From Candidatus Woesearchaeota archaeon (GTDB lineage: Archaea > Nanobdellota > Nanobdellia > Nanobdellales > CAZNIQ01): 12,959 nucleotides of DNA. The notes under the pieces are model-generated. The model was not told the origin of the DNA. It saw nothing but the letters and a program-made list of their open reading frames with translations, and ran no database searches. Both the position numbers and the translations under genes were made by a program. This document shows positions 992 to 12,878 of this stretch, piece by piece. Location of the stretch: the NCBI GenBank assembly GCA_964573185.1, contig CAZNIQ010000008.1, positions 1-12,959 on the forward strand, in the 5' to 3' direction. Every line of letters starts with the position of its first letter. The first letter of the stretch is position 1.

Positions 992-1507
992 ATGCCGTTC
1001 TTTGTTGTAAGAACTGTTGGAGGAAGAGAAGATTTAGTAGCAGAATTTTTGGCTGAAGAAGCTAAAAGGAGGAAAGCAAAAATATATGCAGTTTTAGTCC
1101 CACCCGGAATAAAAGGTTATATCTTTGTTGAAGCAGATAATATATACGAAGTTCAAAGAGCTGTATATGGAATACCACATGCTAAAGGGGTGTTACCAAA
1201 AGAAGTTCCTTTTGAAGAGATAGAGAAATATCTAGTACCTGAAAAGAAAAAGATCGAAATTCACAGAGGTGATATTGTTGAAATAATTGCTGGCCCATTC
1301 AAAGGATATAAGGGAAGAGTTATACGTGTGGATGAACAGAAAGAAGAAGTTACAGTTGAATTAATGGAATCGATGATACCTATACCAGTAACAGTTAAGA
1401 TAGAAGATGTAAAAGTTGTTAAGAAAGAAGCAGAAGTTGCTAAAGAATTAGAAGAGAAAACTAAGAGGCTAGAGAAAGAGGTTGAGGAAGAATGGCTAAA
1501 GTTCTAA
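992..1507 (+). CDS. nusG: Transcription elongation factor Spt5 / NusG
   Basis: NGN domain (FVVRTVGGRE...KGYIFVEA) plus KOW motif (GDIVEIIAGPFKGYKGRV). Sits directly after secE. Carries a K/E-rich C-terminal tail of about 27 aa beyond the KOW domain. Confidence 0.93.
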   Translation: MPFFVVRTVGGREDLVAEFLAEEAKRRKAKIYAVLVPPGIKGYIFVEADNIYEVQRAVYGIPHAKGVLPKEVPFEEIEKYLVPEKKKIEIHRGDIVEIIAGPFKGYKGRVIRVDEQKEEVTVELMESMIPIPVTVKIEDVKVVKKEAEVAKELEEKTKRLEKEVEEEWLKF

Positions 1508-2553
1508 ATTATTTCAATACCTAACTCCTCTTCCAATTCCTTTTTCTTCTCTGGCGTTAATTTTTCTTCTCCTTTTACTTTTCTAACTATAGGAGGTATT
1601 TTTCTTAACCTAGTTACTATAATAAATACTCTTATTGTATTTCCCATTTCAGGATCTATTGCTGCTCCCCAAATTATATTTGCATCAGGAGCTAACTTTT
1701 CTTTTACCTTTTCCAAAATTCTTCCCAACTCTTCCATTTTTAAGTTCTCCCCACCTGTAATTCTTACTAAAGCAGCACCCGCACCTGAAATATCTAAGTC
1801 TAATAAAGGATTATTCAACGCTCTTTCCACAGCTTCCTCCGCTCTATTCTCTGAATCGGACTCTCCTACTCCAATCATACCATAACCTGCTTGTGACACT
1901 ATTGTTCTAACGTCTGCAAAATCAACATTCACTAATCCTGGTTTTGTCACTAACTCTACCATTTCTTTTATTGCAGAAGCTAAAACTTCATCTGCTACTT
2001 TAAAAGCCTGATTTAAGGGTAAGCTAGGGACTAATTCTAATAACTTATCATTCGGAATTACAACAAATAAATCAACCAAATCTTCAAGTTTCTCCAAACC
2101 ATATCTGGCATTATCCCATATTTTCTTCCCTTCAATTGAAAATGGAATAGTACATACCGCTACGGTTAAAGCACCTGCTTTTTTAGCTAATTCAGCAACA
2201 ACAGGAGCAGAACCAGTACCAGTACCACCTCCTAATCCACAGGTAATAAAAACTAAGTCTGCATCTTGAACAACTTGTTTTAATTCATTTTCAGATTCCC
2301 TTGCAGCTTCCTCACCTTTCTTAGGATCTTTTCCAGCACCAAGACCTCTACAAGTCTCTTTTCCAATGAGTATTTTCTTATGTGCTTTTACGGTAGCAAG
2401 ATGTCTAGCATCTGTATTTATCGCTATAAGTTCAACACCTTCTGGAACGCCCATTTCAAAAAGTCTATTTATAGTATTTGAGCCCGCGCCACCACAACCT
2501 ATAACTTTTATTCTTTTGGCTAATTGTTTTAATATCTCTTCTAGCTCTCCCAT
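1504..2553 (-). CDS. ftsZ: Cell division GTPase FtsZ
   Basis: GCGGAGSNT and the tubulin signature GLGGGTGTGSAPV are present. The track ORF begins at a TTG (2565). The first ATG (MGELEE, 2553) sits 28.5 nt from the TATA-like TTTAAATA (reverse complement of 2578-2585), whereas the TTG is only about 16 nt away. I therefore prefer 2553. Confidence 0.96.
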   Translation of the reverse strand: MGELEEILKQLAKRIKVIGCGGAGSNTINRLFEMGVPEGVELIAINTDARHLATVKAHKKILIGKETCRGLGAGKDPKKGEEAARESENELKQVVQDADLVFITCGLGGGTGTGSAPVVAELAKKAGALTVAVCTIPFSIEGKKIWDNARYGLEKLEDLVDLFVVIPNDKLLELVPSLPLNQAFKVADEVLASAIKEMVELVTKPGLVNVDFADVRTIVSQAGYGMIGVGESDSENRAEEAVERALNNPLLDLDISGAGAALVRITGGENLKMEELGRILEKVKEKLAPDANIIWGAAIDPEMGNTIRVFIIVTRLRKIPPIVRKVKGEEKLTPEKKKELEEELGIEII

Positions 2554-2576
2554 CTTGTTAATCAACGTTATTAAAC

Positions 2577-3211: not shown

Positions 3212-3286
3212 GGGCCCGTAGCTCAGCCTGGTTAGAGCGCCCGGCTGATAACCGGGAGGTCCCGGGTTCAAATCCCGGCGGGCCCA
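3212..3286 (+). tRNA. tRNA-Ile (anticodon GAU), no intron, no encoded CCA
   Basis: Hand-folded cloverleaf. Acceptor GGGCCCG/CGGGCCC, D stem GCTC/GAGC, anticodon stem CCCGG/CCGGG with loop CTGATAA (GAT at 3247-3249). Variable loop AGGTC, T arm CCGGG-TTCAAAT-CCCGG, discriminator A. 52 of 75 nt are G+C. Confidence 0.95.
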
Positions 3287-3886: not shown

Positions 3887-4135
3887 ATGTATTACAGTTG
3901 TATGACATCGATAGTAATTTCGGTGAGAATTCCTAAAGAAGTAAAGGAGTACTTAGAAAGGAATAATGTAAAAATTAGTAAAATTGTAAAAAAATTTCTC
4001 ATTTCTTATTATAAAATGTTAAAGAAGAAGGAATTAAGGAATAAAATAATAAATGAAATTAGAAAGTCTTTAGAAAAAGAAGAAGAAGAAAGAAAATTTT
4101 TGAATTTAATAAGAGATGATAGAGATACAAGGTAA
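3887..4135 (+). CDS. vapB: Putative VapB-type antitoxin (ribbon-helix-helix-like)
   Basis: Small protein. It has a beta-strand-like IVISVRIPKEV followed by two short helices, then a charged tail. It overlaps the downstream PIN gene by 20 nt. Met6 (3902) is a plausible true start. Confidence 0.6.
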   Translation: MYYSCMTSIVISVRIPKEVKEYLERNNVKISKIVKKFLISYYKMLKKKELRNKIINEIRKSLEKEEEERKFLNLIRDDRDTR

Positions 4136-4538
4136 GAAACTAGTAATTGATTCTTCTGCAGCTATCAGTTATATTTTGAAAGAAAAAGGATGGAAGGACA
4201 TAGAAAAAGTTTTATTAGAATATGATTTCTTATTTTCTACAAAATTATTAATTAAGGAAAGTTTAAATGCTATTTGGAAAAGGAAATATTTGATAAAAGA
4301 TTTAGAAAATGATAAAGAGGTCATAAGAAGATTGTTTCTCTTAATAAAAATAATAAATTTTTATAAGCAAAGTAAACTTTATAAGAAAGCATATAAAATT
4401 TCTTCTAAATATAATATAACAATTTATGATTCTTTATTTTTAGCTTTAGCTTTGAAAATAAGAGGAGATTTGCTTACGAGAGATAAGAAACAAGCAGAAG
4501 TTGGTAAAAAATTAGGAATAGAAGTTATAGTTATGTAA
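4116..4538 (+). CDS. vapC: PIN-domain ribonuclease toxin VapC
   Basis: The four PIN acidic positions are visible at typical spacing: LVIDSSA, LIKESLNA, IYDSLFLALA and LLTRDKK. Coupled to an upstream small antitoxin-like gene. Confidence 0.8.
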   Translation: MIEIQGKKLVIDSSAAISYILKEKGWKDIEKVLLEYDFLFSTKLLIKESLNAIWKRKYLIKDLENDKEVIRRLFLLIKIINFYKQSKLYKKAYKISSKYNITIYDSLFLALALKIRGDLLTRDKKQAEVGKKLGIEVIVM

Positions 4539-6354
4539 CAACGACCTTTATATTTCTTCCCTCTTTAAGAGCCCTTAGCAATTCTTGTGCTATACTAATT
4601 CTTTTAGATAACCTTATTCTTCCCTTTTTACCAACCGTTGCCGTGAACAATAATCTATCGTCCACATAAATGTTTACAGTTCTTCCCTCCAATTCCTCTG
4701 GAACTCTTATTATTATTACATTCTTCGTTTCCTCTATTTCGAACTCTACTTCTCCAGTATATTCTTCTTCAAAGGTTTTGACAGTGATTTTTACTCCAAA
4801 AGCTCTTTCAAGTGCTTCAATAGTTTTACCTCTTTTTCCTATTAATCTTGGTCTTAGCTCTTCCGGTACCCAAACAATAATTCTATTTGGACCCGCAACC
4901 TCCACTTTTACTTTTCTTGTACCTAAGAACTTCCTAAACTTTTCAACAAGCAATTTTTCCAAGAGAGACAACACAGGTGTTTTGCTAACTTTTACTTCTT
5001 TTACAGGAACAACCATCGTTTCTTCACCAAATACATAGATTTCATATTCCAATTCCCCTGTCTCAAAATCTCTTACTTCTACTACGGGTCTAGCCAAATC
5101 TTCTGCGGTCATACCTGTAGGAACTTTTACTACTAACTTCAATTCATATACTTTTTCAACTCCTCCTTTTCTAATAAATATTATCGTATCTACAACCTGA
5201 GGGATCATACCAACGTCTATTCTTCCTATAAACCTTTGAATAGCTTCTATAGGTTCTGTTGCATGTACTACTCCAATCATTCCTACTCCCGCTAATCTTA
5301 AATCAACATATAATTTGAAATCAGGGGTATCTCTCATTTCATCGAATACTACATAATCCGGTCTTGCCAGTAATAAGATATCATGAATTTCTTGGGAAGT
5401 TGCAAAGTTCTTAGAATACTGTGTTATAATATCTTCTACTTGTAAGTCTCTTGGAGATTCGACAGTCTTAACAATCTTTCCTTTGGAAGCATACCACTCT
5501 GCTAAAGCTTGTGCAAAAGTTGTTTTTCCATGTCCTGGAGCACCAGCAATTAAAATACCTTCTGCTTTTTCTTCTAATCTCTTTAGTAGCTTTTCGCTTA
5601 AATTGTAATCTTCTAACTTTAATTTCTTCAATGGTCTAACAATAGTTATTTCCCAGCCATCTGAAACTGGGGGCTTTACAATTACAATTCTATATTTTCC
5701 TAATTGAACGATAATGCTCCCCGGTCTTTCTATTTCTATAAAGCCATCTGGTCTTATTTTTGCAGCTTCCAAAATCTCTAATGCTAAATTCTCTATTTGC
5801 TTAGCATCTAATTTAACATCAAGAAATTCTAAATACCATTCACCCGGCTTACCCTTTTTTCTCATAATCGGAACGTTTTCTTTAATATGTAAAGAAGCTG
5901 TATTTTCATCAAACCACTGCTCAAAAGTAAGTTTATCCATTAAAGGTGCTTTCTCAATATAATAAACTTTACAGCCATATGCTTCAGCAGCTAAAGCTTG
6001 AACTTTATCAGAAGTTATTAAAACGGCATCTTCCTCTAAAGCAAGATCACGAATCATAGAATCGATTCTACCAGATTTTGCTAGTTTGATTTCTTCTAAA
6101 GTAGGAAGTCTACCAGCAAATCTTATTTTAAATCCTTTTTCTTTGGCTAATTTTTGTAATCTCTTTACCTCTTCTAATCCTATAAAACCCGTTTCTCTTC
6201 CTTTTGCCGCTTGCTGTATTAACTCATCCATTGAAGCGTTATGAATTATTATTTCATTTACTTCGAGTTCTCCAGATTCGATCATTTTAGAAAGTACTCC
6301 ATCTATAAGCACAGACGTATCTGGTACTACTTTATCTATTTTTAACTTTGCCAT
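4531..6354 (-). CDS. Conserved archaeal PIN-domain / PilT-like ATPase / KH-domain protein (COG1855-type)
   Basis: N-terminal PIN (VVPDTSVLIDG ... ITSDKV). Walker A GAPGHGKTT, Walker B VVFDEMRD and a GVVHAT box. C-terminal KH GXXG motif (IGKRGKTIEALERAFGVKI). Confidence 0.85.
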   Translation of the reverse strand: MAKLKIDKVVPDTSVLIDGVLSKMIESGELEVNEIIIHNASMDELIQQAAKGRETGFIGLEEVKRLQKLAKEKGFKIRFAGRLPTLEEIKLAKSGRIDSMIRDLALEEDAVLITSDKVQALAAEAYGCKVYYIEKAPLMDKLTFEQWFDENTASLHIKENVPIMRKKGKPGEWYLEFLDVKLDAKQIENLALEILEAAKIRPDGFIEIERPGSIIVQLGKYRIVIVKPPVSDGWEITIVRPLKKLKLEDYNLSEKLLKRLEEKAEGILIAGAPGHGKTTFAQALAEWYASKGKIVKTVESPRDLQVEDIITQYSKNFATSQEIHDILLLARPDYVVFDEMRDTPDFKLYVDLRLAGVGMIGVVHATEPIEAIQRFIGRIDVGMIPQVVDTIIFIRKGGVEKVYELKLVVKVPTGMTAEDLARPVVEVRDFETGELEYEIYVFGEETMVVPVKEVKVSKTPVLSLLEKLLVEKFRKFLGTRKVKVEVAGPNRIIVWVPEELRPRLIGKRGKTIEALERAFGVKITVKTFEEEYTGEVEFEIEETKNVIIIRVPEELEGRTVNIYVDDRLLFTATVGKKGRIRLSKRISIAQELLRALKEGRNIKVVVT

Positions 6355-7312: not shown

Positions 7313-7864
7313 ATGAAATTTTCTGATCCAAGAAAAATAATCATTGAAGAAATAAAGGAAGAGGAGAAAGTTGAGCATGATATAGAATATTTACTTAATA
7401 ATTTTACACATTTAATAAATTTCCTTAACAGGGAATTCTTAACATTTGGAAAATTAATGAAAATTGAAGAAGAGAAAAGAACCTTAGCGAGAGAATTACA
7501 AGAAATTGAAAGAAGGTTAAGAATGTTTCTAACACAAATACACGAGTTTGAAGAATTTCTTAGAAAAGGAAATTGGAATATATCTTTAAGAGAATTGGGA
7601 ATTTTAAATAGTTTTGAAAGCTTTTTAAAGAGATTCGTGAATGTTGCTATTGAAAGAGTAGAAAAATTATGTGAAGAAGAAAAAAGAATTTTAGATGAAA
7701 TGAAACAAGAAATTAATAAGGAGCTACAGGAATTGAAAACAATAATAAAAGCTGAGAGAGGTGAATTACATAATTTATCGGAATTAGAAAAGCTGATTGA
7801 AAAAGAAAAATCCATTTATACGCAATTACCTGGAACGTTACTTAAAGGAAATCTTTTTAGGTAA
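7313..7864 (+). CDS. Hypothetical all-helical coiled-coil protein P1 (183 aa)
   Basis: K/E/L-rich heptad-like sequence (LARELQEIERRLRMFLTQIHEFEEFL; EEEKRILDEMKQEINKELQELKTIIKAE). I recognise no family. The track start at 7199 would overlap rpoL divergently by 53 nt and reads like an antisense shadow. ATG 7313 has correct TATA spacing. Confidence 0.7.
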   Translation: MKFSDPRKIIIEEIKEEEKVEHDIEYLLNNFTHLINFLNREFLTFGKLMKIEEEKRTLARELQEIERRLRMFLTQIHEFEEFLRKGNWNISLRELGILNSFESFLKRFVNVAIERVEKLCEEEKRILDEMKQEINKELQELKTIIKAERGELHNLSELEKLIEKEKSIYTQLPGTLLKGNLFR

Positions 7865-7885
7865 GAACATATATAAAATGAAAAC

Positions 7886-8383
7886 ATGAGAGGGTTATTT
7901 GGGTTCTTTAGAGGGAAGAAAAAGAAGCAAATAGATATTTCTGGGTTTGTAAGAAAAGAACCAAGTGGTTTGGGATACTCAAGTATTTCCGTACAGATCG
8001 GTGCAAGAGGTTTTCCATATATTGGAAAGATCGCTATGGTCTGGGCACAAAAACTGAAAAAAGATTTATCAGAAGCACAAGAGATACTTAAGAAAGAAGA
8101 AACAGAAGTTGCGGGCATCTCAAAAATTATCGAAGAGTTGTGGAAACTTGAACAAGAAAAATTGAAACTGTATAGATATTTAATGCTTATGGCAAAGAAA
8201 CCTGCAAATCTTCCAAAAGCAATAAAAGTTATTGAAACTTTAGATAAATTGATTCAAAAACAAATAGTTCTAATAAAACATCTCGCAAAGGAAGAGGGTT
8301 CTGAAAAACACACATTGGAAAAAGAGCGTGCCTTGCTAAAACAATTAAAAGGATTATTAGAAAAATATATACAACAAATGTGA
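7886..8383 (+). CDS. Hypothetical protein P2 (165 aa): amphipathic basic N-terminus, G/S/P-rich linker, C-terminal coiled coil
   Basis: Begins MRGLFGFFRGKKKKQ, followed by a linker of about 35 aa (EPSGLGYSSISVQIGARGFPYIGK), then about 110 aa of heptad-like helix. It lies 21 nt after P1 with no correctly spaced promoter, so it is probably co-transcribed. Confidence 0.7.
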   Translation: MRGLFGFFRGKKKKQIDISGFVRKEPSGLGYSSISVQIGARGFPYIGKIAMVWAQKLKKDLSEAQEILKKEETEVAGISKIIEELWKLEQEKLKLYRYLMLMAKKPANLPKAIKVIETLDKLIQKQIVLIKHLAKEEGSEKHTLEKERALLKQLKGLLEKYIQQM

Positions 8384-8403: not shown

Positions 8404-8928
8404 TCACAAATCATTCACCAATTCTTCTAACGTTTTTCTAAATTCGTCCAAAATCCCATGTAAATCTAAGTTTAGAATTCTCTCTAATTCACTCATACTT
8501 TCGAAATCTACTTTTCCTTCTTTTATAAGTTCTATGATTGTTTTCCCCATTTTATCCCTACATTCCTTATATGAATTCCTTTGAGTACACATATTTAGCA
8601 ATCCCCATACCAATAAATCATGAAATTTTAGCTTTTTATCAGAAGATAGAGATTTTAATACAAACTTCCAGCCAGCTATATAATTTAAATCATCGTCAGC
8701 CGTAAAATCAAAACCAGTATCATAATTTTCCAAGGATTTTGCTGTTCTTACTATTCCTTGTGGTAATTCAATAATAAAATAATATATGTCAAAACCAAAA
8801 GATATTTTTCCTAAAACATTGTTATAACCGAATTCTCTTGCAAATCTATTAATATATTCATGGAATACTTTTGCATAAGATCGCATTAATTGTAGAACTT
8901 CTGAGATAAACTTCTCATACGCGCTCAT
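8404..8928 (-). CDS. Hypothetical globular protein P3 (174 aa)
   Basis: Aromatic-rich, non-repetitive sequence (FGFDIYYFIIELPQG, DFTADDDLNYIAGWKF) unlike its coiled-coil neighbours. It has its own TATA (reverse complement of 8951-8958) centred 26.5 nt upstream of the ATG. No family recognised. Confidence 0.7.
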   Translation of the reverse strand: MSAYEKFISEVLQLMRSYAKVFHEYINRFAREFGYNNVLGKISFGFDIYYFIIELPQGIVRTAKSLENYDTGFDFTADDDLNYIAGWKFVLKSLSSDKKLKFHDLLVWGLLNMCTQRNSYKECRDKMGKTIIELIKEGKVDFESMSELERILNLDLHGILDEFRKTLEELVNDL

Positions 8929-8949
8929 GAATAATGTTACTACTTCTAC

Positions 8950-8960
8950 TTTATAAAAAT
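8950..8960 (-). promoter_or_regulatory. TATA-like box for P3
   Basis: On the - strand ATTTTTATAAA; the octamer is centred 26.5 nt from the ATG at 8928. Confidence 0.45.
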
Positions 8961-8994
8961 TATTATCTATTTATACATAGTAGATTTTTAAAAC

Positions 8995-9003
8995 AATATT
9001 AAG
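8995..9003 (+). promoter_or_regulatory. TATA-like box for the P4-P5 operon
   Basis: TTTTTAAAA; the octamer 8996-9003 is centred 26.5 nt from the ATG at 9026. Confidence 0.45.
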
Positions 9004-9025
9004 AGAGAAGAAAAATATATTCTTT

Positions 9026-9250
9026 ATGCCCATTGATGAAAAACTTTCTAAGGAAAAAGAGGAGGATGTTCTAAAAGAAGAAATCGAGGTATTGGAAAGG
9101 GAAATAAAGTTAGCGATACTTGAATTGGAAGATCTAAAAGAAGATTTAAAAGAGTTAGGACTAAAGGAAAAATTAGAAGAGGATATAGAAGAAGTGGAGA
9201 AGTTCCTAAACAATGCTTATGAAATCGCGAAATTATTAAAACAATGGTAA
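9026..9250 (+). CDS. Hypothetical small, highly acidic coiled-coil protein P4 (74 aa)
   Basis: EEDVLKEEIEVLEREIKLAILELEDLKEDLKELGLKEKLEEDIEEVEKFL. The stop overlaps the P5 start (CAATGGTAA, 7-nt overlap), implying translational coupling. Confidence 0.65.
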   Translation: MPIDEKLSKEKEEDVLKEEIEVLEREIKLAILELEDLKEDLKELGLKEKLEEDIEEVEKFLNNAYEIAKLLKQW

Positions 9251-9948
9251 AGCTATCGGGTTTAGTAAAAAGGAGAACAAACAGATTATTAAAAACATTA
9301 AAGCAGTTTGGTAAAGAATTAGGAATTGAAGAAAAAGATTTGGAAAAACTTGAAATCTCGCTAAAGCAAGAAATAGAAAATTTAGAAAGACTAGAAAACG
9401 AAATTGGTAGAGAAACAGGAAAACTACTGAAAATATTATTGGAATATGAAGTTACAAAAAAAGAGCTTGCTACAAAAATAGTAAATGTTATACATATCTT
9501 GGCAGGAGTGCAAGGAAAAATACATAACCTAAGAGTAAGAGTTGCAAATGTTGGAACAAGAATAAAAACATTAATCAAAAAAGGAATTGGAAAATCTGCT
9601 TTGTTAGCACTAAAAGCCGCTGGATGGGCTGGATCTCCTACTGCGAGGCAGACGGCAGAAGCAGCAGAAGAAGAAATAGAGGAAACAATAATGTTAGAGA
9701 GACAATCGGCTTCTGCGATAAGATCTTTGAATAGAATTCTTTATGAAGTCAACGCAAGTATTGAAGGTACGCTTCAAAGATTAAAGGAGATAAATAATAA
9801 AGAAAAAAAGCTCTTAGATCAAATAAAGAATAATTTAAATAAAGAAGAAGAAATAATAAATAAAGCCCTACATATAGAAGCGACATTAAAAAATTTAGAA
9901 AGCCAATTAAGTCAAGTTTTGTCAGAACTACAAAGAACTAGTTCTTAA
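9244..9948 (+). CDS. Hypothetical protein P5 (234 aa): basic N-terminal helix and two coiled-coil arms flanking a central basic/hydrophobic region that ends in an Ala/Gly-rich segment
   Basis: N-terminus MVKLSGLVKRRTNRLLKTLKQF. Heptad-like arms at about residues 25-77 and 142-230. The central segment is IHILAGVQGKIHNLRVRVANVGTRIKTLIKKGIGKSALLALKAAGWAGSPTARQTAEAAEEE. No family recognised. Confidence 0.75.
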   Translation: MVKLSGLVKRRTNRLLKTLKQFGKELGIEEKDLEKLEISLKQEIENLERLENEIGRETGKLLKILLEYEVTKKELATKIVNVIHILAGVQGKIHNLRVRVANVGTRIKTLIKKGIGKSALLALKAAGWAGSPTARQTAEAAEEEIEETIMLERQSASAIRSLNRILYEVNASIEGTLQRLKEINNKEKKLLDQIKNNLNKEEEIINKALHIEATLKNLESQLSQVLSELQRTSS

Positions 9949-11602
9949 AGCTCAATATCTTTACCTCCCCAGTCCTTAAATTTTTTATAACAACTTTTGC
10001 CGGATCGGGAATATGTCCCATTTCTTTTTGGAATATTGTTAAGCCTTGCCAACATGAAGCATTGATTAAATCAATACCTTTATAGTTTCCATAAGCCGTA
10101 CGATGAATGTGACCAGTAACAAAGATATCCGGGATGGGATCAATTAACAGAGGATCTTCTGATGGGTATGGGATGTATGCTGTGGAACCATGAGTTGGAG
10201 CTAAATGTCTTAGTTGTAACATAAATTTCATTATCAAAACGGCATTTTCATATCCCCCATTTTGCCTTATCATTTCAACATTAGATACTAACCAATCCAT
10301 AGAATAACCATGATATATCAAAGTTAAAAATCCTTGGAAATCTTTAGTATAATGTATTCTAACGTAAGAAGGATTGGATAAGAAATAAACATTTTTCATT
10401 TGATACGCATTTGGTAAATATTCTTTTGGTATTGGAGGTTGTGGCTCTGCTAGTCTAACAACAACATCGTGATTTCCGGGTATTACTATTATTTTTATAT
10501 GTTCTGGGACTTCCTCTAAATACTTTTCAAATACTTCATATTGTTTATATATATCATCTATTTCCAATTCTTCCCTTTGATTTGGATATACACCAATACC
10601 ATCAACTATATCCCCAGGAATTACCCAGTAAGCCACTTTTCTTGCCATCTCCCTTTGTTTCTCATTTCCATATTCTCCTTTCAACCATTTAATAAATTTT
10701 TCAAATTCCTTTTTTAAGAAAAGCTTATTTCCGAACTGGAAATCGCCAGTAAATATAACATAAATATCTTCTTTTATCGGAGCAGTCTTCTTTTCCTTTT
10801 GAGGAACGTCTGGTAAGAATATTTGTTCAGGAAATACGGTTTCGTTTTTAATCGTACCGAAAACCCCTATAACAGAATCCTCCGGAATACTTTTAGCTAA
10901 AGAATATAATTCGCTATCTTTTTTAACGTAAACTGTAATATAACCAGTAGGATCTTCTAAAATTAGTTTAACATTACCGTTAGGCAAAATTCTCTTTTCA
11001 TAAACTAATCCTGCTATAGAAACTTCTTCATTTTCTTTTTTCTTAGCTAGATCTATACTAACCACATTTAACATTTCTTTATGCAATTTCAAAGCTTTCA
11101 TCAATTTCTTTAATCTTACTTTGAAATATTGTGCCCAAGCAGGAACAGATATCTCCTCAGGAGGATTTACATAGTTTTTCTCAATTTTGATATTTGTTTC
11201 AATTTCTTCTCCTATATATCTTTTCTTTGGCTCTATAATTTCTACTTCTTTTGGTTTCTCCTTTATAATAACTTTCTGCTCAATTTTCACTGTTTTCTCT
11301 ATTTTTACTTCTTCAGTTTCTTTTACCTCTTTAAAGAATTGAGTAAGTGTTATAGATTTTCCATTTGTTTTTACTTTAATTTTCCTTTCTTTTCTTAAAG
11401 TTTCACCCGTTTTTTTATTCTTTACTTTAACTAAAACTTCTTTTGTCAAAATTCTTGGTATGTTATTTCCATATACTAATCTCAAATTCTTTAGGAATTC
11501 TTCTATATCAAAATCTCCATTTATCTCTTCAAGAAAATCTGCTGTAACTATAAATCCTCTTCTCGCAAATTCTTCAATTATCCTTTTTATCTTTGGATTC
11601 AT
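9938..11602 (-). CDS. dp1: DNA polymerase II (PolD) small subunit DP1, with a calcineurin-like phosphoesterase domain
   Basis: Phosphoesterase motifs PGDIVDG, PGNHD, YHGYS and TGHIHRT are present. Also present are the OB-fold region, the conserved N-terminal domain and a K/E-rich linker. Motif I reads GDFQFG rather than the usual D-x-H. The ATG overlaps the cdc6 stop (ATGA). Confidence 0.93.
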   Translation of the reverse strand: MNPKIKRIIEEFARRGFIVTADFLEEINGDFDIEEFLKNLRLVYGNNIPRILTKEVLVKVKNKKTGETLRKERKIKVKTNGKSITLTQFFKEVKETEEVKIEKTVKIEQKVIIKEKPKEVEIIEPKKRYIGEEIETNIKIEKNYVNPPEEISVPAWAQYFKVRLKKLMKALKLHKEMLNVVSIDLAKKKENEEVSIAGLVYEKRILPNGNVKLILEDPTGYITVYVKKDSELYSLAKSIPEDSVIGVFGTIKNETVFPEQIFLPDVPQKEKKTAPIKEDIYVIFTGDFQFGNKLFLKKEFEKFIKWLKGEYGNEKQREMARKVAYWVIPGDIVDGIGVYPNQREELEIDDIYKQYEVFEKYLEEVPEHIKIIVIPGNHDVVVRLAEPQPPIPKEYLPNAYQMKNVYFLSNPSYVRIHYTKDFQGFLTLIYHGYSMDWLVSNVEMIRQNGGYENAVLIMKFMLQLRHLAPTHGSTAYIPYPSEDPLLIDPIPDIFVTGHIHRTAYGNYKGIDLINASCWQGLTIFQKEMGHIPDPAKVVIKNLRTGEVKILSFKN

Positions 11603-12862: not shown

Positions 12863-12878
12863 CCCCCCCCCCCCCCCC
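12863..12878. repeat. C16 homopolymer (G16 on the cdc6-coding strand)
   Basis: Counted directly: 8 C at 12863-12870 plus 8 C at 12871-12878. It sits between the cdc6 TATA box and an ORB-like dyad, in DNA that is otherwise strongly AT-rich. Confidence 0.9.

Follow-up and report, generated by a model that had tools for sequence, protein, structure and literature searches.

An orphan archaeal protein with a predicted membrane-targeting N-terminus and a helical core, without detectable relation to ESCRT-III, PspA or SepF

An open reading frame (ORF) from a Woesearchaeota archaeon, here called P2, encodes a small basic protein whose first 14 residues (MRGLFGFFRGKKKK) have the properties expected of a peripheral membrane-targeting sequence and are kept in the only homologue found, while nearly everything downstream of them has diverged. 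P2 lies in a 12,959-nucleotide (nt) stretch of DNA, positions 1 to 12,959 of contig CAZNIQ010000008.1 (GenBank assembly GCA_964573185.1), which was analysed as a whole and is referred to below as the window. A first-pass annotation, made from the letters of the sequence, had likened this N-terminus to the membrane-binding motifs of the ESCRT-III/PspA/Vipp1 superfamily and, loosely, to the targeting helices of archaeal SepF. The likeness in physico-chemistry holds, but it does not extend to a family relation. Instead, we consider that P2 could be a lineage-restricted, fast-evolving basic tether of the peripheral membrane type, which would bring a helical bundle, and probably the product of the neighbouring gene P1, to the membrane. 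We give this explanation about an even chance of being correct.

The N-terminus of P2 is strongly amphipathic and basic, as the first-pass annotation had proposed. On the Fauchere-Pliska scale residues 1-9 (MRGLFGFFR) have a helical hydrophobic moment (muH) of 0.68 and a mean hydrophobicity (H) of 0.70; four lysines (KKKK) follow directly, and the net charge of residues 1-15 is +6. The suggested helical-wheel and hydrophobic-moment analysis of residues 1-15 reveals, besides the high moment, a hydrophobic face made of M1, L4, F5 and F8 within an arc of about 100 degrees, with R2, G3, G6, R9 and G10 opposite. By the same scoring the experimentally defined anchor of Haloferax volcanii SepF, MGIMSKILGGGG (PMC8187382), gives 0.53/0.75 (muH/H), and the N-termini of Escherichia coli PspA, Synechocystis Vipp1 and Bacillus subtilis SepF reach best-window moments of 0.69-0.82. 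The values for the P2 N-terminus are comparable with or higher than those of the characterised anchors scored, which supports a physico-chemistry like that of a peripheral membrane-targeting sequence and leads us to predict membrane binding. An aromatic cluster followed by four lysines is the classic lipid-binding pattern. Such a combination goes beyond chance: the P2 values together with K or R at positions 11-14 were obtained once among 200,000 random N-termini with the amino-acid composition of the window (~5e-6), and P2 is the sole ORF to combine these features among the 144 ORFs of at least 80 amino acids (aa) in the window and seven related loci.

The sole homologue of P2 emerged when 1.84 billion representatives were searched exhaustively with phmmer. 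This protein, P0002 (121 aa, E 9.6e-5), is encoded on contig JBPMBW010000006.1 of an NCBI metagenome-assembled genome (MAG; GCA_054017035.1), at a locus designated L009 where the gene order is the same as in the window (g82-PIN-PIN/ATPase-AMMECR1-RpoL-P1-P2-DP1-Cdc6). Protein identity between the window and L009 amounts to 86-95% for the flanking housekeeping proteins, 67-69% for P1 and 33-38% for the helical part of P2, which outside the motif is about 31% identical to its orthologue. Nucleotide similarity extends from the left flank through P1, ends at position 7930 (P2 codon 15) and restarts at the stop codon of DP1. Codons 1-14 and the 13 nt upstream of them form a conserved island between the diverged tail of P1 and the diverged linker of P2. 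Within these codons 36 of 42 nt and 10 of 14 residues are identical, so that the motif, whose loss in orthologues had been named as a possible outcome, is retained. Of the six nucleotide differences, those at R2 and G3 are synonymous and the others cause the replacements F7L, R9K, G10R and K14E; these retain hydrophobic and basic character, pointing to constraint at the protein level. By Nei-Gojobori counting between the window and L009, the nonsynonymous divergence (dN) is 0.12 in codons 1-14 and 0.71 in the rest of P2 (0.6-0.7 for linker and core), compared with 0.20 in P1 and 0.02-0.08 in the housekeeping neighbours, against a background synonymous divergence (dS) of 0.65-1.5. These figures show that the motif is selectively conserved, with the remainder of P2 diverged almost to saturation.

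The reading frame and start codon of P2 are as first described. The frame is intact over 165 codons in DNA of about 31% G+C and starts MRGLFGFFRGKKKKQ; the translation of 7886-8383 on the forward strand is MRGLFGFFRGKKKKQIDISG..., written further as MRGLFGFFRGKKKKQIDISGFVRKEPSGLGYSSISVQIGARGFPYIGKIAMVWAQKL.... An independent gene call on ENA ERZ27262635 (k141_292563) picked the same ATG, and the contig sequence is also present in Logan SRR7968109. Initiation at the internal Met51, which would remove the motif, is without comparative support since this methionine has no counterpart in the orthologue, and its absence argues for initiation at Met1. A survey of upstream regions found no evident Shine-Dalgarno motif in the P1-P2 spacer; the genes of the window have no consistent motif of this kind, which makes the result uninformative for the P2 start site. 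A scan for bacterial promoters and terminators returned only background levels.

Downstream of the motif, the single-sequence AlphaFold model of P2 consists of a disordered segment and an all-helical core. The first-pass annotation had described a G/S/P-rich linker of about 35 aa followed by about 110 aa of coiled coil. A linker of this composition is indeed present, although it spans 28 residues (15-42); the predicted core, on the other hand, is not a continuous coiled coil but a bundle, in which 122 aa are distributed over four helices of 25-28 residues each (43-70, 78-102, 106-133 and 139-164). Residues 1-41 are unstructured in the model, the predicted local distance difference test score (pLDDT) at residues 1-3 and 5-41 being below 50; an anchor whose folding requires lipid would be expected to look like this. 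For instance, the alpha0 helix of PspA is unfolded without membranes (PMC12358876). In the PDB, Foldseek ranks the designed four-helix bundle 8a3k (sc-apCC-4) first, with an E-value of 0.33 and template-modelling (TM) scores of 0.54/0.68; a Foldseek search against viral structures gave nothing with E < 0.4.

Membership of P2 in the ESCRT-III, PspA/Vipp1 and SepF families was rejected, as no similarity in sequence, profile or fold was found. In Pfam neither P2 member matched Snf7 (PF03357), PspA_IM30 (PF04012) or SepF (PF04472) at E-values up to 10, and searches of NCBIfam and of PDB sequences and profiles with P2 produced nothing relevant. The references for hhalign, namely five ESCRT-III sequences, PspA, Vipp1 and B. 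subtilis SepF, were aligned; all were accepted by Pfam (E 2e-16 to 6e-72), which validates their domains and not each N-terminal residue. The ESCRT-III, PspA and Vipp1 N-termini quoted in the first-pass annotation agree with these references. Against them the P2 profile scored 0.9% over 26 columns for ESCRT-III, 0.05% for PspA/Vipp1 and 0.09% for SepF. Equally thin profiles of ESCRT-III and PspA/Vipp1 matched each other at 26% (E 7e-4, 88 columns); a test with profiles as thin as these can thus still pick up the relation between the two. No ESCRT-III, PspA, Vipp1 or SepF chain occurs among the 50 listed Foldseek hits of P2 in the PDB, all of which have E-values of at least 0.33. Both the profile comparison with Snf7, PspA_IM30 and SepF and the comparison of the model with ESCRT-III hairpins that the first-pass annotation had suggested were therefore negative.

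The P2 C-terminus ERALLKQLKGLL only partly fits the MIM1 pattern and is not conserved in the orthologue, and no Vps4-like gene was found in the 13-kb window or in 20 kb of the relative's locus. In the ESCRT-III and PspA reference sequences the Pfam domain begins either between residues 11 and 22 or already at residue 2, whereas the first helix of P2 starts at residue 43: a motif-type N-terminus is present, but about 28 disordered residues precede the first helix. The ESCRT-III/PspA fold comprises an elongated alpha1-alpha2 hairpin (+3), alpha4, an alpha5 packed across the hairpin and an N-terminal alpha0, in a protein of about 150-220 aa (PMC12358876).

The P2 family is exceedingly small: about 15 billion proteins contain just two members. 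Word-indexed searching of 5.8 billion protein clusters retrieved only P2 itself when started from P2, and only P2 and the L009 protein when started from the two-sequence profile. JGI metagenome scans with an AMMECR1 anchor and the P2 profile were empty, as were scans of viral contigs with P2 and P5, one of three further orphans (P3, P4 and P5) encoded downstream in the window. A 34-residue C-terminal match of P3 to a viral contig was regarded as noise. Comparison of P1-P5 with NCBIfam, PHROGs and PADLOC gave coiled-coil noise only, and PDB sequence and profile searches retrieved only designed helical bundles and coiled coils; a Pfam AAA_23 match (E 6e-4, below cut-off) was rejected, as it covers the coiled-coil part of that model. 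Among P1-P5 themselves there is no paralogy beyond low-complexity coiled-coil matches. Six Woesearchaeota/Nanoarchaeota loci, taken from species representatives, keep the cdc6-DP1 arrangement and have neither P1-P5 nor a motif-bearing ORF.

P1, the gene directly upstream, is the probable partner. The two genes are separated by 21 nt in the window and 8 nt in L009, distances so short that they probably form one transcription unit. This unit is divergent from rpoL, with a TATA-like box 21-29 nt upstream of the P1 ATG, and in the only related genome P1 and P2 are likewise neighbours, in the same order, between RpoL and DP1. Like P2, P1 belongs to a family of two members, its only homologue being P0004 (67-69% identical). 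Its AlphaFold model (pLDDT 75.7) has helices at 6-85 and 97-148 (80 and 52 residues) and a short third helix at 155-170. P1 evolves about 3-10 times faster than the housekeeping neighbours (dN 0.20, dN/dS 0.15), and it has no significant fold or profile match. As a real ESCRT-III/PspA-like protein it was considered and rejected: Vipp1 (6zvr) appears only at rank 10 (E 8, probability 0.12), and hhalign gave at most 0.5%.

Table. Positions in the window of P2, its parts and the genes discussed with it
Feature	Position (nt)	Strand	Remarks
P2 coding sequence	7886..8383	+	165 aa plus stop; basic, isoelectric point (pI) 9.8; orphan family
Putative membrane-targeting sequence, P2 codons 1-14 (MRGLFGFFRGKKKK)	7886..7927	+	short amphipathic aromatic stretch, then polybasic run
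Flexible G/S/P-rich linker, P2 codons 15-42	7928..8011	+	39% G/S/P; predicted disordered; sequence not kept in orthologue
All-alpha core, P2 codons 43-165	8012..8380	+	predicted up-and-down four-helix bundle
P1-P2 intergenic spacer	7865..7885	+	ATATAAAAT(N)AAA directly 5' of P2 ATG, kept in L009 alignment
P1, 183-aa orphan	7313..7864	+	directly upstream of P2; predicted long alpha-helical hairpin
FtsZ	1504..2565	-	Pfam Tubulin 5.6e-46, FtsZ_C 7.9e-33; context only

From these observations we infer membrane binding, a partnership with P1 and a cellular role for P2 along the following lines. P2 and P1, an orphan predicted to form a long helical hairpin, would be the products of one two-gene unit. 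On an anionic membrane the peptide 1-14 would fold into about 2.5 turns of amphipathic helix, with M1, L4, F5 and F8 inserting into the bilayer and K11-K14 holding lipid head groups. A disordered tether of about 28 residues would join this peptide to the core, and the four-helix bundle of about 120 residues would be the business end of the protein. The most likely job of P2 would then be to keep the bundle at the inner side of the cell membrane, probably along with P1 or another partner.

A number of points weigh against this proposal. The glycines at positions 3, 6 and 10 reduce helix propensity, and the AlphaFold model, computed from a single sequence, is modest (mean pLDDT 66.7, predicted TM score 0.61). 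Conservation of the motif rests on two sequences, that is, on one comparison with six nucleotide differences. The proportion of synonymous differences (pS) in the motif is 0.28 (about 8 synonymous sites), as against 0.45-0.64 in the neighbouring genes, and this low synonymous divergence could also reflect an element at the DNA or RNA level. A dN of about 0.6 in the core, set against the background dS of 0.65-1.5, is near-neutral and fits a dispensable or decaying gene. Finally, as assembled in L009 the motif is uncoupled from the helical core, and a protein with both anchor and core is not made. There the motif belongs to a 47-codon ORF (9831-9974, starting MRGLFGLFKRKKKEEPN...) upstream of the called 121-aa gene; this ORF ends in a run of seven T (T7, 9966-9972) directly before a TAA, and the helical part goes on in the -1 frame (9831-10366 overall). 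If one T is added, L009 encodes a 178-aa protein that aligns with P2 from end to end. L009 and L010, the second assembly that bears the T7 run, are identical across 9200-10400 and appear to come from the same sample. The frame change may accordingly be a pseudogene, a homopolymer or assembly error, or recoding or slippage.

These points bear unequally on the other explanations of P2. The strongest competitor, which we regard as unlikely yet worth serious attention, takes the conserved stretch to be a motif that binds a protein, such as P1, or nucleic acid, or else a DNA or RNA signal for promoter activity or translation initiation, with P2 itself a soluble basic helical protein. The conserved island also takes in 13 nt 5' of the ATG, ATATAAAAT(N)AAA, which agrees with a signal of this sort, as does synonymous divergence in codons 1-14 below that of the neighbouring genes. 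P2 is moreover basic throughout, with a pI of 9.8 for it and its orthologue alike, and it is located among genes of replication and transcription (RpoL, DP1 and Cdc6). This explanation sits less well with the fact that two of the six differences are synonymous and that the exchanges F to L, R to K and G to R keep hydrophobic and basic character, and the aromatic cluster ahead of four lysines follows the classic lipid-binding pattern. Somewhat less probable again is the view that P2 is an orphan gene, newly arisen or in decay, which has hardly any function or none and whose resemblance to an anchor has no functional significance. Its two members in about 15 billion proteins, a core dN of about 0.6 close to the background dS, the broken frame of the orthologue and the variability of the adjacent DNA (8404-9948) would all be at home in such an account. 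Yet without selection an ORF of 165 codons is unlikely to survive in 31% G+C DNA, P2 occupies the same place beside P1 in both genomes, its motif is kept far better than the rest, and an assembly error may underlie the T7 frame change, which occurs in two assemblies that apparently stem from one sample.

Readings in which P2 takes part in membrane remodelling or division fare worse. It is very unlikely that P1 and P2 together make up a previously unknown, lineage-specific membrane-associated scaffold, with P2 as the anchor and P1, as a hairpin of 130 residues, polymerising or sensing curvature; such a split system would be analogous and not homologous to ESCRT-III/PspA or SepF, and its rapid evolution could reflect a role at symbiont-host contact sites. 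Slightly less probable still is a non-homologous analogue of SepF whose helical core binds FtsZ or another part of the divisome. The three-part layout that P2 shares with SepF, together with the presence of FtsZ in the same window, makes this idea attractive, but the core is all-alpha without a SepF match in Pfam (hhalign 0.09%), and P2 is not adjacent to ftsZ, from which 5.3 kb with unrelated genes separate it. Conservation would also be expected of an FtsZ anchor, whereas P2 is confined to two genomes, with 33% identity between the two copies and a frame shift in one of them; besides, most archaea with FtsZ already carry a true SepF (PMC8178401). Least credible of all is the idea raised in the first-pass annotation, that P2 belongs to the ESCRT-III/PspA/Vipp1 superfamily in divergent or minimal form, in which case the N-terminus would serve as alpha0 or insertion motif and the helices would polymerise to remodel the membrane. 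The pattern M-x-G-L-F-G plus basic residues does resemble the N-termini of CHMP3, CHMP6 and CHMP2A in the reference sequences, P2 is all-alpha after the linker, and in many archaea FtsZ occurs together with ESCRT-III superfamily proteins (PMC7613921). This explanation is nevertheless close to refuted by the lack of Snf7 and PspA_IM30 matches, by the hhalign and Foldseek results given above, by four equal helices (of about 26 residues) in place of an elongated hairpin, and by a 28-residue disordered linker where the domains of the family start at residue 2-22; nor does a two-member, nearly neutral family with no Vps4-like gene nearby speak for it.

FtsZ is encoded in the window as the first-pass annotation had recognised, and its gene adjoins those of L11, SecE and Spt5, the usual context of ftsZ1 in archaea (PMC8178401). 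Besides these, the window carries genes for an FKBP, a PIN pair, a PIN-ATPase-KH protein, AMMECR1, RpoL, Cdc6/Orc1 and DP1, which is the small subunit of DNA polymerase D. The closest species-level relatives are Woesearchaeota/Nanoarchaeota MAGs (36-46% identity for DP1 and 51-57% for Cdc6), which together with FtsZ indicates a DPANN-type archaeon that has FtsZ; the supposition of an FtsZ-encoding archaeon with a reduced genome is, in light of these relatives, a reasonable one.

Several other features of the window were recorded. Between P2 and DP1, the segment 8404-9948 encodes the orphans P3 (174 aa, minus strand), P4 (74 aa, an acidic coiled coil) and P5 (234 aa), none of which has a Pfam, NCBIfam, PHROG or PADLOC match; the segment is absent from L009, where P2 directly abuts DP1, and hence is a variable island. 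P5 also has a basic, amphipathic N-terminus, MVKLSGLVKRRTNRLLKTLK, and was likewise rejected as a real ESCRT-III/PspA-like protein (hhalign at most 0.5%). In L003, L004, L007 and L008 cdc6 is followed by DP1 and then by DP2, which encodes a large subunit of about 1150 aa, whereas in the window lineage DP2 is not downstream of DP1. Since DP2 follows DP1 in these four of the six Woesearchaeota/Nanoarchaeota loci, the locus has been rearranged and the operon broken in the window lineage. A C16 tract at 12863-12878, possibly origin-proximal, precedes the start of cdc6/orc1 by about 40 nt. The tract differs in length from assembly to assembly: in the relative it is C11 (L009 13521-13531), about 250 nt upstream of cdc6, and L010 has at least C15 at its end, where the Logan contig stops within the tract. 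An ENA contig of 13,020 bp (L001) ends just short of the C16 tract, through which the window runs. On the other side of the window, an 81-82-aa gene overlaps a PIN-domain gene at 3890-4538 in what looks like a VapBC-type pair, beside which a 607-aa PIN/T2SSE-like ATPase/KH-domain protein is encoded at 4531-6354; the pair and the larger protein are conserved in the relative at 86-95% identity. A tRNA-Ile (GAT) at 3212-3286 is the only Rfam or ARAGORN match in the window.

The first-pass annotation had remarked that a second membrane-remodelling module beside FtsZ would be notable in a reduced genome; P2, as a two-member family that evolves near-neutrally and has one frame-shifted copy, does not support one. 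Presence in two closely related genomes, a near-neutral core, a broken frame and a downstream insertion or deletion are unlike core machinery. They fit an accessory gene with fast turnover, possibly in lineage-specific surface or host-contact biology, or a gene that is being lost. No hidden ESCRT-III/PspA system comes to light through P2 in an archaeon that divides by FtsZ, and P2 thus has no bearing on the evolution of the cell-division machinery; it does illustrate that an M-x-LFG-basic N-terminus is by itself not diagnostic of ESCRT-III. P2 is a newly found orphan protein, and the mechanistic kind to which it would belong, peripheral proteins anchored by an amphipathic helix, is already known. 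If the peptide binds membrane, P2 would add one more convergent case of a design made of amphipathic anchor, linker and small core, and would offer a handle on membrane-associated proteins of DPANN archaea, whose lineage-specific proteins are mostly uncharacterised.

Compared with known systems, the predicted architecture of P2, with its anchor, linker and core, is SepF-like rather than ESCRT-III-like, and P2 is a member of neither family. With ESCRT-III, PspA and Vipp1 it shares small size, an alpha-helical make-up and an N-terminal peptide of the M-x-(G)-L-F-G/basic type that may insert into membranes, but it has neither the elongated alpha1-alpha2 hairpin nor the alpha3-5 arrangement of these proteins, and a long disordered linker follows its motif. 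With SepF the correspondence lies in the overall plan, a short N-terminal amphipathic peptide, a flexible linker (about 30-50 residues) and a small folded core, as well as in similar size (about 150 aa) and occurrence in an archaeon that uses FtsZ. Indeed, the SepF layout of an N-terminal targeting helix and a flexible linker is found in P2 as an anchor-like segment at 1-14 and a linker at 15-42; in Methanobrevibacter smithii SepF the anchor spans residues 1-12 and, after a flexible linker, the core spans 54-149 (PMC8178401), and the Pfam core of B. subtilis SepF begins at residue 64. The loose resemblance to archaeal SepF helices proposed in the first-pass annotation does not extend to kinship, given that Pfam and hhalign gave no match. 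The P2 core is predicted to be an all-alpha four-helix bundle, in contrast to the alpha/beta dimer fold of SepF, with no sequence or profile similarity between them; the polybasic run of P2 is also much stronger, and P2 is confined to two genomes.

The best structural matches to the P2 core are designed and natural up-and-down four-helix bundles, such as 8a3k, the copper storage protein Csp and pectin methylesterase inhibitor (TM 0.5-0.68). With E-values of at least 0.33 and 3-22% identity to P2, they represent a generic fold that carries no functional information. The N-terminal peptide finds its closest parallel among generic amphipathic and polybasic targeting sequences, of which the C-termini of MinD and FtsA and the H0 helices of Arf and N-BAR proteins are examples. 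The features of this class, a high moment, a hydrophobic face, positive charge and lack of structure (pLDDT < 50), are all present in the P2 peptide, and the underlying logic is the same: a hydrophobic face combined with a cationic cluster, unstructured until lipid is bound. None of these sequences is attached to a core like that of P2. They are convergent motifs carried by unrelated domains, and what P2 would share with them is a mechanism rather than a family.

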